The translations under genes were made by a program, and so were the position numbers. The notes under the pieces are model-generated. The model made no database searches, was not told where the DNA came from, and saw only the letters and a program-made list of their open reading frames with translations. This document shows positions 35,668-41,328 of a DNA stretch of 64,000 nt, in pieces; positions within the stretch are counted from its first letter, which is position 1, and each line of letters begins with the position of its first letter. Origin of the DNA: Chloropicon primus. Taxonomy: Eukaryota. The DNA lies in NCBI GenBank assembly GCA_023205875.1, contig CP060762.1, positions 310,001 to 374,000 of the forward strand, read 5' to 3'.

Positions 35668-37036
35668 CTATTTTTCCACCACTCCTCCTCCCTGTCCGCC
35701 GGCATGGACGTCGCAAAGCTTCGAGTACTCATCTTGGAGACGCTTGGTGACCTCCCCGCGCTTTCCTCCTCCAATCTCGCGTCCATCCACTTCCACCACA
35801 GGGATGGCACCAGCAAACGTCCCGGTCACAAAGCACTCGGAGGCAGAATAAACCTCGGTCACCGAGAAGTTTCGTTCCTTGGTCTGAATACCGCACCGCT
35901 CCGCGAGGTCGAGCATGTTCTGCCTGGTAATTCCGTGAAGCTGGTACTCTGTTGTCGGCGCAATGAGTTGCCCCCCGCAAACCATGAAAAAGTTGGTGCT
36001 GTTACAAGTCGCAACAAAGCCTTGAGGATCCAACATGAGCGCCTCGTTTACGCGCGCTTGCTCTGCTTGGATACAAGCCGCGATGCACTGGTGTTTCGAC
36101 AACGAGTTGATCATCGGATCCTGCGTGTCGGGCCTTGCTCTTCTGACGAACGAGGTGATCAGCTTAATGCCATTTGTCTTCACATCCTCCGTGACCGCCT
36201 TTCTCTCAGGGATGATCACGATCGTCGGCATGCCCAACGTCGCTTTCGGGGCTTGGTACGGCGTCAACTTTTCACCCCTGGACACGATCAGCCGTATGTG
36301 AACCCCGGATTCCATCCCATTGGCGACGCATGTCTCCTCGACCATTGTTTTGAGCTCATCCTTGGTGAGATCGATGGACATGGCAAGGGCTTTGGCGCCT
36401 TGGTAGAGACGGGCAACGTGCTCGTCCCAGAACAGAAGTTTCGACTTGTGCAATCGAATTCCTTCCCAGACGCCGTCCCCCAGAACGAAGCCCGCGTCCA
36501 AAACCGAAACCTTGGCCAGGCGCCTCGGTACCAATGAAAAATCCAGTGTCACGCCGTTCCTCACGCCGATCAGAATCGAAGCGTTCCGATCATCTTGCTT
36601 GAAGGCATGAGTCCCCCCTCGTACTGCCGCCTCCTGGTCCACGGGCGAGGATGCCTCAAGAACGTCGCGCGCACGGACCGCGCGGGCCTTCAAGAGGCTC
36701 CAGAACGGGTGAACATCCTCCAGCAGGTCAACAATATTTTTGCTCACGGCCTTGGCCATCTTGTGAGATCCAACGCTCTTCGAGAATCCTGTGCTCCTCC
36801 TCGAGTTGCGATACCAAAGATCGGCCCAGCAGCCCTCGTAATCCTTTGGCCCAGCTGTCCAAGCCAGCATTCTTTCATCGAAGGCAACGCCGACGTGACT
36901 CGTCATCGCCTTGAGCATCCGAGCTGGACTCTCGAGCACGTCCTCGGACACAAGCACGAGGCGGTGGAGGGGAGGAGGAGGAGGAGGAGGAGGAGGAGGA
37001 GGAGGAGGAGGAGGAGGATGCGCTCGCTCGCGCGCT
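35668..37036 (-). CDS. 3' part of sulfotransferase-like/class IV PLP aminotransferase (plant BCAT-like type); 5' boundary uncertain
   Basis: VSVLDAGFVLGDGVWEGIRL, EALMLDPQGFVATCNSTNFF, LHGITR, ECFVTGTFAG; begins mid-domain (LVSEDVLESP..MLAWTAGPK). Confidence 0.85.
36966..37018. repeat. (GGA)n microsatellite close to the insertion junction
   Basis: Direct reading. Confidence 0.95.
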
Positions 37037-37060
37037 CTGCTTCACCCCTCGAGGCCTCAA

Positions 37061-39011
37061 GGTTGTCCTGCTAACCCTCATCGCGGAGAGGCGAGAGCGA
37101 CTCTATCCAAAAAGTGAAAATCGGAATCCACCTGGCGCTCAATCATGATGGATGAGAAGGGAGGGGGCATGATGGTTGGGGAGAGGAGTGGTAATGTGTG
37201 GTGGTTTATGCCTACCTACCTACCTATCCACTTCTTCTTCTTTTTACCGGCTTATGGAACGTGTTGTTTCCGCTCTTCATGCAAGGAGGCAGGATCAGGT
37301 GGACAAGAGAACAAAACCAGGAGAGGTGACTCTCGCAGCAACGACTGACTGCTGTCCACAATTAGGGCTCCAGAGGCTTTATCAGCGCGGGGGGCGACCT
37401 CATCTAAACAAGGAGAGAGAGAGGGGGGCGTGTTATATATGTATTGTTTCTATATATAAAAAAGATATGAAATATATGATTGGGAGAGAGACAGAGAGAG
37501 ACATCGGTTGCTCGAGGAGAAGATGAAGAAGACGAGAAAAAAAAAGCATGATGAAAGCTAAGCTGCGGAATGGAAGTACTTGTCGGTCCACGTGTCTACC
37601 TTCTTACGCGCGTGCGGGTTCGGCTGCACGCCAATCTTCGACGCGTGCAGGTGCAGGCACGTCTTCCCAGGCTGCGACTCCGATCGCAGGTACCCATTCG
37701 CCTCCAGCTTTGCCGCGGGGATGATCCAAAAGTATGCTTTGCCTTCCACCCACGCCACCGCCACTAGCTCGTCGAACGCCCCTGCCGGGTAAGGATCTTT
37801 CAGCTCCTTGCCCGCCTCGTCACGCCCGGCGTAGGTGTACAGGTTGCACATAAACCCGGCGGCGCCGTTAGACGCCGCGCGCGCCGTCTTGAACTGCTGG
37901 CGCGTCGTCGCATCCTTCAGCAGGTCGACTTGGGTGTTCTGTCCCTCGGGGAAGGCGTAGCGGTGCTTTGGGAAGCTCGCCTTGAACGCGTCGATGCCGC
38001 GCATCTCGAGCGCGTGGGCCTCGGACGCGAAGTCGTGCCGCGCGGCGTGCTCGGTGACGGTCGTCCACCGACACAGATGGGCCTGGGCCTGGGCCTGGGC
38101 CTGGGCCTGGGCCTGCTCGCTCAGCCATTGCACGAGCGCGGCGAGGTTGAGGCCACGCGCGAGCGCGAGCTCACAGTTCTTGCGGAGGGGGGTGACGCTC
38201 AGGTCCAGCTTGCCGCGCTCGTTCAGCGCGTTGCCGTTGTACACCCACGCGTCGCCGACGTCGCACCGCCAGCACACCACACACATCCCCGAGTAGCCGG
38301 TGACGTTGTGGAAGTACCACGTATTCGGGCTACCCTTCACGGTGCCGCTCGTCGTCTTGAGCTGCACCGGCAGCCACGCGTCCTCCTCGCTCAGGCGGAG
38401 GAGCACGTCGGCTTTCGTGCCGTCGTTTAGCACGAGCGCCGCGCTCCCGGGGATGGTCGCCTCCCATCTGGCGACGAGGGCGAGCGCCACTTCGCGCTCC
38501 GTGGCGGAGCTCCGGCCGTAGATCGCCAGGTCGCGGGCGCGCTTCACCGCGAGCGCGGCTCGGTCGGTCTCCCTCTTCTTGAGTTTGCCCGCGCGGTACG
38601 CCTCGAGGGCGGCGACGGCCTCCGCCACGGTGGCGAAGTATTCCTTGGGGCGACCGATACGCACTCCGTACTTCTTCTTCTTGCGGCGCTTGTCAATGAA
38701 CACCCCCTTGGGCATGGTCGCGCTCCGTCTTCTGTCCCTCGGCCTCGACGCCCGTCCGTTACTTTTAAGTTTTTCGGTCCGCTTCTCCTCCCGCCGATTT
38801 TCAAAATGCCCCCCGCCAAAAGCCATGGCGGGAAAAGGACGGGCGATGGAGGTGTTGGAGGGTTTGAAGGCGAAGGTGTCGGTGGATGCGACCGAGGGGG
38901 AGATCCAGCTGGCGAGGAAGGAGGTGCGGCAGCACGTGGAAGCCCTCGACCGAGACTTGCTGAGGCAGGCCGCGGCTGTCTGTGCGACGACCTCAGGGAG
39001 AGGGGGTTGTC
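37061..39011. mobile_element. Candidate insertion (or large nested intron) splitting the aminotransferase-like gene, bounded by direct repeat GGTTGTC
   Basis: GGTTGTC at 37061-37067 and 39005-39011; contains nuclease-like ORF and a truncated divergent ORF; no terminal inverted repeats or LTRs seen. Confidence 0.45.
37558..38715 (-). CDS. AP2-like DNA-binding domain + tandem PD-(D/E)XK-type nuclease-like protein
   Basis: PKGVF..KYGVRIG..YFATVAEAVAA; DGTKADVLL..WLPVQLKTT; NTQVDLL..RQQFKTA; (QA)n linker; visibly more GC/CG-rich than neighbouring genes. Confidence 0.6.
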   Translation of the reverse strand: MPKGVFIDKRRKKKKYGVRIGRPKEYFATVAEAVAALEAYRAGKLKKRETDRAALAVKRARDLAIYGRSSATEREVALALVARWEATIPGSAALVLNDGTKADVLLRLSEEDAWLPVQLKTTSGTVKGSPNTWYFHNVTGYSGMCVVCWRCDVGDAWVYNGNALNERGKLDLSVTPLRKNCELALARGLNLAALVQWLSEQAQAQAQAQAQAHLCRWTTVTEHAARHDFASEAHALEMRGIDAFKASFPKHRYAFPEGQNTQVDLLKDATTRQQFKTARAASNGAAGFMCNLYTYAGRDEAGKELKDPYPAGAFDELVAVAWVEGKAYFWIIPAAKLEANGYLRSESQPGKTCLHLHASKIGVQPNPHARKKVDTWTDKYFHSAA

Positions 39012-39446
39012 AAGCTTCGAGTACAGCTGCACCAGGGCCGGGTAGCACGACTCCTCGAGAGTGACCGGTGCCCCGCTGTCAAACGAATCGAGGGACTTCT
39101 CCACTCGGTTCCTGATGAGAAAGATGTGAAAGCACCTTCGATCTGTCACCAACTTGCTGTTCTCAAGTCCTTCGAGCTGCTTGCCCACGTGCTTCAGGAA
39201 AATGATTTGCTTGCCGTTCGACATCGACATGATTTTGTCCACGACTTTTGCTCCGTCCGTCTCCATGGACTGAAAGAGCTGCTTCTTGTACGGTCTCTCA
39301 ATTTCAGGATGGCGTACCAACCACTGGGCATACAAGGGCTCATCTATCACGAGAGTATCTTCTCTCTGAGCCCAGCTGTACATCATAGACGTCGAGCACG
39401 ACCTCGGGGCTGCCCACAAGTTCACAATCACTGGCGGACTCTCCAT
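38992..39446 (-). CDS. 5' part (P-loop sulfotransferase-like domain) of the split aminotransferase-like gene
   Basis: LWAAPRSCSTSMMYSWAQR..VIDEPLYA, IFLKH, HIFLIRN; similarity ends at LYSKLDN. Confidence 0.85.
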
Positions 39447-39741
39447 CCTTCCCAACCTTCGCTCCCTTCCCCCTCTCCCCTTCTCCTCCTCCCCTTGGCT
39501 CCCTTCTCCTCCCCTTGAACTCCTCTTCGTTCCCCTTGGCTCCCGCCAAAAAGAAGGAAGGAGGAGGAAGAGGGAGGCGGCGTTATAGAGAGAAGGACGG
39601 GAGGAGGAAGGGGGTTTCCAGGACGACGAAGAACGAAGCTACGTCTCGACATCTTTCCAACGAGTGACCACTCGAAGGGTCTGGCGAAGGGGAACGCATT
39701 GATTCATTGATTGATTCGTCCTCCCAAGCTTGAAGCTTGGG

Positions 39742-40383
39742 ATGTCAGAGGCCGCAGAGCGGAGGGCGGTGCCCTTCGGGGACAGCGAGTACTGGGTCGA
39801 GCGTTACGAGAGGGAGGCGGAGGACGGCTTTGAGTGGTATCCAGGAGCAGAAAGCATCGTCTGCGAGGAGTTGAGCCACCTAACGTCGGAGGAGAGGGGA
39901 TGGAGATGGCTGGAGATAGGGAGCGGAAGCTCTGCCCTCGCGTCCAAGCTCGCGGGAGAGCACTCCTCGGCCACGCTCTGTGTCAGCGATGTGGCCCCGA
40001 ATGTCGTCGCCACCATGAAGGAGAGGCTGCTGCAGGGCGGGGCTCAGAACCTGGAGTTTGCTGTTCTGGACGCCACGAGCATGAAGTGCATTCGTTCCGA
40101 ATCGATGGATCTGGTGTTCGACAAGGGAACATTGGACGCCATCGACTGCCTCGATCACGAGCACGCGGGGACGAGCAGGTGCCTCTCCGAGGTGAGAAGG
40201 GTTCTCAACCCAGGAGGTTCCTATCTCTTGGTCAGCTGCAGGGAGCCAGAGGGGAGGCGGCGAGACTTTGAGCTCGGGGGGCTGAGGCTCGTGAAGACGG
40301 TCGAGATCAAGGGAGTGGATCCCCGCTGCCCTTGCCCCGATGCGTATCTTTTCCTGGTCCAAAAAGCAGAAACTGTACCATAA
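39742..40383 (+). CDS. Class I SAM methyltransferase, METTL13/EEF1AKMT4-like
   Basis: YWVERY..FEWY, LEIGSGSS, DLVFDKGTLDA, RVLNPGG. Confidence 0.85.
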   Translation: MSEAAERRAVPFGDSEYWVERYEREAEDGFEWYPGAESIVCEELSHLTSEERGWRWLEIGSGSSALASKLAGEHSSATLCVSDVAPNVVATMKERLLQGGAQNLEFAVLDATSMKCIRSESMDLVFDKGTLDAIDCLDHEHAGTSRCLSEVRRVLNPGGSYLLVSCREPEGRRRDFELGGLRLVKTVEIKGVDPRCPCPDAYLFLVQKAETVP

Positions 40384-40428
40384 ACAATATTCAAATTCAA
40401 TATTCAATAATATTCTTATTATATATCT

Positions 40429-41328
40429 TCACCCAGCAGAGAAGGGGTTGAAGGGTCTCACCTCGAGCTCAGTCACCATCCTCTGGCTCAGAATTTTCGT
40501 GTACTCCGTCAGAGTGTGGATCTCCCGCGGCCTGTAAAGCTCCGCCGCCTTCACGTCCAACCCATCGGACTGCAGCAAAATGTCCCTCGCGGGAACCAGG
40601 TGCCTGTGCCAGAACTCCTCCAGCGCGGCGTATACGTAGCCCCAGTACTCCCTGTCCCTCTCCACCACGTACACGCAGCTCCCGCCCTCAATCGTCCAGC
40701 AGTAAAAGTACGTGGTCTGCATGTCGAAGATCTCCATCAGGCTCTGCACTTGCGCCATGTAGTACCAAGGCGCCCTGTCCCAAGGCTTCATCTCCTTGGG
40801 ATAGCCGCGGTTGTAGGGGCACTTGATCTCCAGCAGGGCATCCATGTCCGGAATTACCCCGTCAGGCGCAGCCCCGAGCCAGGTCTTCCCCTCCTCCCTG
40901 TGCAGGCGGACCAAGCCTCCGGCCTCCTTGTCCAGAAGCGCGAGCCCGTCCTTGCCGGCGTCCAGGACGTTGTACCCCGTCAGCGCCGAGAAGTCGTCCC
41001 GAGCCCGAGGCTCGTGCTTGGTCCCCCACCTCGTCGCGTCATTCCCTCGGAAGGGCTCCCTCAGGCCCAACTTCTCCTCCCACACTTGCTCCCTTCCCCC
41101 CTTCCACCAACCCAAGGCGTTCGCCAGCTGGGACCCAGTCAGCCTGCTCGCTCGCCTGATGGGGACGACAACCTTGTCCTTGGCGCCCTCCTCCTCGCCG
41201 CCGCCCCCCAAGTCGGAGGACGAGCTCCAACACCTCCCCTCACGCCTCGCACCCCTGCCGTTCGCCTGCACCCTCGCCCGGGTGAACGCCACCAATGACC
41301 TCGCTCTCGAACCGCAGCACCCTCTCAT
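40429..41328 (-). CDS. YqaJ/lambda-exonuclease-like nuclease with organellar-type presequence
   Basis: LTGSQ, ATRWGTKHEPRA, WLGAAPDG, LLEIKCPY, YYMAQVQ; Arg-rich N-terminus. Confidence 0.88.
   Translation of the reverse strand: MRGCCGSRARSLVAFTRARVQANGRGARREGRCWSSSSDLGGGGEEEGAKDKVVVPIRRASRLTGSQLANALGWWKGGREQVWEEKLGLREPFRGNDATRWGTKHEPRARDDFSALTGYNVLDAGKDGLALLDKEAGGLVRLHREEGKTWLGAAPDGVIPDMDALLEIKCPYNRGYPKEMKPWDRAPWYYMAQVQSLMEIFDMQTTYFYCWTIEGGSCVYVVERDREYWGYVYAALEEFWHRHLVPARDILLQSDGLDVKAAELYRPREIHTLTEYTKILSQRMVTELEVRPFNPFSAG

Follow-up and report, generated by a model that had tools for sequence, protein, structure and literature searches.

A nuclease gene lies within a split host gene

The window analysed here is a 64,000-nucleotide stretch of Chloropicon primus DNA, and its own numbering is used throughout. 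Proteins encoded nearby and the paralogues of the nuclease point to this species as well. On its minus strand lies an open reading frame of 385 amino acids (37558..38715) with paralogues at 88-94%, in which each motif quoted by the initial annotation was found. The linker of Q and A residues described there is encoded on the minus strand by 6.3 copies of a 6-bp unit (38078-38115), and a repeat count and a comparison of copies show that its length varies. The reported richness in GC and CpG was confirmed: the ORF has a GC content of 0.666, a GC3 of 0.88 and a CpG observed/expected ratio of 1.23, compared to 0.535-0.656, 0.68-0.86 and 0.81-1.07, respectively, in seven neighbouring coding stretches, of which the YqaJ gene (GC3 0.86) comes near in third-position GC. 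TGTAA, said to be missing downstream, is absent from the whole of 36006-40533, and two TGTAA lie just past the stop codon of the host gene described below. The YqaJ gene (40429-41328, minus strand) is a host gene that lies 1.4 kb from the insertion and encodes a nuclease domain of the viral-recombinase type. It is probably resident, since other C. primus records have a YqaJ gene too.

The nuclease ORF sits within a broken host gene, a point overlooked by the initial annotation. The gene is sulfotransferase-like with a class IV aminotransferase part and is interrupted at codon 149/150. Its 5' part (39000..39446, minus strand, codons 1-149) matches positions 5-104 of the Pfam sulfotransferase-5 profile PF19798, and its 3' part (35668..36957, minus strand, codons 150-578) matches profile positions 143-226 followed by aminotransferase IV (PF01063), so that the profile itself is split by the insertion. 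The halves, of 149 and 429 residues, equal residues 1-149 and 150-578 of the intact 578-residue C. primus protein QDZ23016.1 letter for letter, and in other algae a single fused protein of about 600 residues corresponds to the interrupted gene.

The empty site was recovered from read-derived contigs. Single contigs of the presumed RNA runs X4 and X5 join position 39000 to the far side of the insert, and the same empty site appears in DNA run X1 as a loose end at 39000; the DNA runs show mainly the empty allele. X4-X6 are presumed RNA runs, in which missing contig cover proves nothing and contig depth cannot rank expression. Comparison of the empty and filled sites gives an insertion of 2,038 bp plus a clean 4-bp duplication (GAGG on the plus strand, at 36958..36961 and 39000..39003) with no loss of host DNA. 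The filled right-hand junction, between the target and a captured piece of another gene, is carried by a perfect 53-nt contig in X1 (depth 84, flanks 121), which at that length does not qualify as a bridge, and was seen in one of the two DNA runs, being absent from the contigs of X3. The junction at 38825 was not seen in read-derived contigs, and the left junction is masked, with 36956-37029 treated as repeat. The X1 sample may be heterozygous at this locus; its evidence is not independent, because X1 may be the source of the assembled window itself. Supplementary Data 8 of PMC6731263, a table with low read depths, does not list this locus, which is the only complete empty/filled pair seen.

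Reading the insert as an intron was rejected for exact excision, as none of the five equivalent excision registers has GT-AG ends; 17 imprecise in-frame GT-AG pairs exist. Rfam gave no intron match (one chance hit). The nuclease ORF has its own start and stop codons, and the element does not look like a homing endonuclease borne by a self-splicing intron or intein.

The insert is a patchwork with variable ends

The insert combines 182 bp from another gene with the element and additional 3' DNA, and short overlaps mark the joins. The 182-bp piece (38825..39006, plus strand) begins at the apparent start codon of its gene of origin and was delimited by contigs that match it and then differ on both sides. 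It shares 7 bp with the target (39000-39006) and 4 bp with the element (38825-38828), overlaps expected by chance at about 4e-4 and 0.017, respectively. A short ORF in 38825-39006 matched no Pfam family below E 0.1.

The element begins with an upstream region, likely promoter and 5' UTR (38716..38828, minus strand), recognised from contigs and from the start of a published chromosome 1 insertion; past 38828 other copies run on with different sequence. In other copies, 37892-37949, which codes for the second active site, is also found duplicated ahead of the start codon; the duplicate is absent from the window copy (compare 38716-38760). An internally deleted copy, suggested by loose contig ends at 37949 and 38731, was dropped as a candidate since other copies carry this duplicate upstream.

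Downstream of the ORF lies a 3' tail common to other copies (37324..37557, minus strand), defined by loose contig ends and published insertions. Other copies depart from it at 37541, 37507, 37366 and 37323 (among 18 of 33 loose ends) and, according to the published insertion table, at 37360, giving at least five different 3' ends. In the window the tail is followed by about 360 bp of extra 3' DNA (36962..37323, minus strand) ending in a GAG repeat. Its likely origin is another locus from which it was copied, since one DNA contig runs along 37030-37323 and passes straight into 37507-type sequence, so that the stretch there sits directly beside a different tail.

Thus, of the shared ends and target site duplications for which a check had been proposed, a 4-bp duplication was found at the host-gene site, whereas fixed shared ends were not. 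The reported absence of terminal inverted repeats holds among the 25 longest of 155 inverted pairs. Compared with a TIR transposon, the element lacks fixed ends and has a target site duplication, of 4 bp, at one site only. No poly(A) occurs at the insert's 3' junction and no reverse transcriptase in the element. The target has no symmetry (6 of 22 positions) and no palindrome, and the insert contains no close copy of it (best 14/20).

The motif ACCNCCT (minus strand) occurs at both junctions (36959-36965 and 39001-39007) and at two 3' ends of other copies; it is lacking at three other 3' ends and occurs 69 times in the window, where 37 matches would be expected. We note it post hoc as a lead, a candidate target motif.

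Presumed RNA contigs of two studies end near 38760 without a loose end while the DNA continues, which is a weak hint that DNA rather than RNA was the template. Presumed RNA contigs cover the nuclease family, but not 36956-37269.

Copies of the gene are dispersed and polymorphic in C. primus

The initial annotation had proposed a mobile element, and the gene is indeed multicopy and polymorphic rather than single-copy in conserved synteny. Each of two named C. primus assemblies has seven more copies, all annotated as hypothetical proteins. Together with the published insertions described below, copies lie on at least chromosomes 1, 3, 4, 6, 12 and 14, in addition to the host-gene locus, rather than at a single conserved insertion site, and in one assembly an identical nuclease protein is found on chromosomes 12 and 14.

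The C. primus genome is described as mostly diploid in the available text of PMC6731263. Two of the six heterozygous insertions over 1 kb in Supplementary Data 8 of that paper begin with nuclease-family sequence, one on chromosome 1 (2,531 bp) and one on chromosome 3 (1,534 bp, after about 85 foreign bases); both were assigned by eye from the first 400 letters of each, a span that excludes their far ends. The chromosome 1 insertion carries over 100 bp more upstream DNA. As the family makes up about 0.1% of the genome, it is far over-represented among large heterozygous insertions (binomial p about 2e-5, a rough figure). The same table lists two heterozygous 2.7-kb insertions with near-identical starts, at chr3:123680 and chr6:369520, which form a second active family, possibly the Fanzor2 TIR elements.

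These observations lead us to regard the nuclease gene family as almost certainly mobile. The initial annotation had suggested that the nuclease could mobilise the block in which it sits; mobility was borne out, whereas the larger block was not, since the mobile unit is the ORF plus short flanks of variable length (1.5-2.5 kb in all).

One copy, P0028 (A3770_04p34060), has its first 25 codons in tandem triplicate, and P0006 has a 25-residue internal deletion. In a four-gamete test on 10 C. primus paralogues, some of them one locus sampled in two assemblies, 228 of the 465 site pairs failed (8/41 near pairs and 220/424 far pairs), and the paralogues are therefore mosaics of each other. They vary most directly behind each QxK motif and within the AP2-like module. 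An excess of non-synonymous change was considered and discarded as not significant: 29 of the 35 coding differences listed are non-synonymous compared to a neutral 76% (p 0.23), and because this matches the neutral expectation, neither purifying nor positive selection among copies is shown.

The protein is predicted to hold two nuclease domains

The 385-residue protein was modelled with AlphaFold2 (mean pLDDT 84, pTM 0.70). In the predicted model both halves match PD-(D/E)XK structures, as the initial annotation had proposed. Foldseek gave as best matches MepB (E 5e-8) and I-Ssp6803I (E 1e-5). Predicted domain 1 (38116..38517, minus strand; E73, D103, Q118 and K120, also D98) was assigned by fold match and conservation, residues 73-211 aligning in VIA-align with Holliday-junction resolvases (Z 7.5, rmsd 3.1-3.4, 105-110 aligned). 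Predicted domain 2 (37561..38031, minus strand; E237, D264, Q274 and K276), assigned by fold and profile, is closest to I-Ssp6803I and MepB; residues 230-384 align with I-Ssp6803I (Z 12.7, rmsd 3.1, 131 aligned), and the MepB-like profile PF08877 matches at E 6e-10. The modules had been called similar. Their motifs are in register, but the similarity is only distant (hhalign probability 20%, E 0.001).

The nine putative catalytic positions (E/D/QxK) are each kept in 82-86 of 87 relatives, and the putative catalytic residues are kept in all 10 C. primus proteins. The protein would thus carry two intact PD-(D/E)XK active sites in one chain. Pfam and PHROGs gave no match for the nuclease protein itself; among the 87 relatives, 15 match the MepB-like family and 7 match PDDEXK_5 (PF11645).

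In the case of the N-terminus (residues 1-45; 38581..38715, minus strand), the proposed AP2-like module is seen in the model as a fold of three strands plus a helix, but its assignment as AP2 is tentative. It aligns with the GCC-box domain 2gcc (Z 4.2, rmsd 2.8, 45 aligned), and PF00847 matches 4 of 10 N-terminal pieces (best E 5e-4), the window protein's not among them.

Relatives in giant viruses and metagenomes are likewise dispersed

Relatives fall into 833 clusters at E 0.001 and 101 at 1e-30. The suggestion that homologues be sought in giant viruses proved fruitful, the full-length fold matches being proteins of Klosneuvirus (E 4e-18), Hyperionvirus and an Aureococcus virus. The nearest protein-atlas cluster is 94% viral (score 0.93), and no cluster is named. 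Seven viral loci of one clade, of which L013 and L016 are the same locus, have neighbours that include NCLDV capsid, PolB and MutS genes. The five viral loci with an intact 5' side have in common only about 4-80 bp upstream plus the ORF, and they end at the stop codon. The cassettes lie in unrelated surroundings, two of them in one giant-virus bin, and L014 has the two genes between which the nuclease lies in L013, with no nuclease there. Judged by sequence, the viral relatives appear to be promoter-plus-ORF cassettes.

The 9 metagenome loci include three copies, at 89-93%, whose flanks are unrelated, and two that have NDUFB7 or a GH38 mannosidase as a neighbour, a setting suggestive of eukaryotic hosts. 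Searches that depend on short exact words gave no close relative in viral contigs, with an alignment or two single relatives as queries, nor in phage or prokaryotic genomes. In a tree built by a quick method on 54 rows from about 250 relatives, five C. primus proteins group together with support 100, far from the named viral clade. P0343, P0397 and P0330 are labelled as Paracoccaceae or Rhodothermaceae bins; since P0343 and P0397 fall within the giant-virus clade, these are likely viral contigs that were mis-binned. At its 3' end, the L006 relative shares about 50 bp (82%; 1437-1486 and 1996-2045) with the 3' end of an adjacent HNH endonuclease gene, and L009 contains a 218-bp imperfect inverted repeat (25-242) 3.5 kb upstream of a relative.

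How the gene may spread

The overall interpretation of the initial annotation is supported, with corrections, and the site-specific cleavage and pseudo-dimeric geometry proposed there stand as predictions. The reading that we favour, and consider reasonably probable, is that a recent copy of a multicopy mobile gene without defined ends split the host gene, and that the gene spreads because its predicted twin-domain endonuclease cuts chromosomal DNA and host repair copies the gene into the break. The two predicted active sites in one chain, one per strand, would leave a staggered break. A broken end would prime on short matches, of 7 bp and then 4 bp at the host-gene locus, take other loci as templates, a donor copy of the element among them, and switch between them, after which the new end would anneal back through the 4-base overhang. 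The repair would probably be polymerase-theta-type end joining or synthesis-dependent repair. In Chlamydomonas, according to the accessible portion of PMC8604939, polymerase theta is the dominant enzyme of templated repair and extends from matches of 2 bp; its role in Chloropicon is assumed. The intact homologue might shelter damage in a mostly diploid alga, and variation in the predicted DNA-reading strands might give copies with different targets; we hold both of these steps less firmly. The persisting heterozygous copies argue against efficient allelic homing, in that conversion is at least not immediate. Counted against an endonuclease reading are the lack of symmetry in the target and the fact that MepB and the Holliday-junction resolvases have the same fold and are not known to be mobile.

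A short target duplication, 5' truncation and template switches would also fit retroposition, in which a host retroelement reverse-transcribed an abundant transcript, truncating copies at the 5' end and jumping from one RNA to another, while the nuclease was a passenger. The 4-bp duplication, the 5' junction at a 4-bp overlap, the presumed RNA contigs that cover the nuclease family and the captured piece, which begins where that gene's presumed RNA contigs begin (38828-38830), are all in line with this. We nonetheless consider it unlikely, given a 3' junction that lacks poly(A), catalytic residues conserved across 87 relatives and viral relatives that are dispersed in the same way; the upstream DNA carried beyond the apparent transcript start, with over 100 bp more in the chromosome 1 insertion, is a weak hint in the same direction. 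Equally improbable in our judgement is a crude transposase, a protein that cuts near its own gene and frees linear or circular pieces with variable flanks for capture at breaks by end joining. Such a protein could account for the variable ends, the tandem duplication of the 5' end in P0028, the internal coding DNA duplicated in the upstream region and the short motif at some 3' ends, but the element has no fixed ends, the model includes no joining catalytic domain, and the patchwork has three or four parts with overlaps, which fit template switching better than ligation.

The nuclease could instead be a restriction-like enzyme that benefits host or virus (e.g., against competing viral DNA) and was multiplied by ordinary break repair without driving itself. 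Relatives in giant viruses and the variable DNA-reading strands favour this, and such roles are argued for viral mobile nucleases in the part of bioRxiv 299784 available to us. The insertion broke a conserved host gene, however, the family is far over-represented among new large insertions, and the insert has no methylase partner, so that we rate this explanation as quite unlikely. Highly unlikely is an assembly chimera at the host-gene locus, which would leave the family itself real; two of the three checked junctions were not seen in contigs and the DNA runs show mainly the empty allele, but the perfect 53-nt contig in X1 carries the junction of target and captured gene, and a clean 4-bp duplication without loss of host DNA speaks against it as well.

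Tentatively, and with no more than guarded confidence, we suggest an unnamed class of eukaryotic mobile DNA in algal nuclei and giant viruses. It would consist of one gene, with neither transposase, ends nor intron, whose predicted single-chain twin nuclease breaks new sites; the gene would be copied in from microhomology-primed ends, host fragments would be shuffled along the way, and recombined DNA-reading strands would retarget the nuclease.

Novelty and comparison with known systems

The nuclease family is apparently undescribed, and it appears to be a kind of endonuclease-only selfish DNA. No description of it was found in the literature searched, which took in few subscription journals; the main text of both Chloropicon genome papers uses the word 'endonuclease' 0 times; and in the 16-MB supplement of PMC12301720 the 238,205 characters searched contain none of six locus tags, while the remainder may mention the family. 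Repeat-finding based on ends or transposase domains misses endonuclease-only elements. The Chloropicon element nevertheless accounts for two of six large heterozygous insertions and one broken conserved gene. The spread of endonuclease-only elements such as WHO10 and MIGE to sites that lack homology becomes directly testable with an empty and a filled site, base-level junctions and heterozygous copies in a culturable alga with a compact genome. In addition, several hundred relatives with a fixed scaffold and variable DNA-reading strands are a predicted source of small single-chain site-specific nucleases.

In fold, the best structural match to domain 2 is I-Ssp6803I (PF11645), which is encoded in a cyanobacterial group I intron, whereas the Chloropicon element is free-standing, nuclear and apparently not spliced out. 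MepB-like proteins (PF08877; PDB 4lqe) match domain 2 by profile and fold; they are single-domain bacterial proteins that are not known to be mobile. An AP2 module is reportedly carried by mobile HNH endonucleases of Tetrahymena, phages and bacteria. The AP2-like module on a mobile endonuclease is a likeness to these enzymes, but their nuclease is HNH and the Chloropicon one a twin PD-(D/E)XK. I-Ssp6803I is also a single-domain tetramer, as far as the available text of PMC3943268 and PMC3239194 describes it, while a single chain of the Chloropicon protein combines two nuclease domains with an N-terminal module.

Among mobile elements, MIGE of Mimiviridae, as presented in the available part of bioRxiv 299784, has one ORF and a short upstream non-coding piece and is interspersed and multicopy. 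The viral relatives have the same anatomy; MIGE encodes a zinc-finger protein, and the likeness drawn here is one of anatomy. The Fanzor2 TIR elements are nuclease-carrying mobile DNA of C. primus itself, but according to the accessible text of bioRxiv 2023.08.09.552727 they possess TIRs and a RuvC nuclease, show 5-nt duplications and depend on a separate transposase for movement.

The closest parallel in behaviour is WHO10 of Torulaspora globosa. The text of PMC7282813 available to us describes an intact endonuclease gene at several unlinked nuclear loci, specific to strains, that interrupts host genes, carries fragments of other genes and has no homologous flanks, and it leaves the mechanism of spread open. 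The same account describes the WHO proteins as LAGLIDADG/intein-like, with a zinc finger, and traces them to a family homing into FBA1; unlike the WHO elements described there, the Chloropicon element has no home locus that we could find and carries no host-gene repair fragment. The Chloropicon element, with its twin PD-(D/E)XK protein, is WHO10-like in behaviour, but it is not a WHO element, and the two proteins are unrelated.
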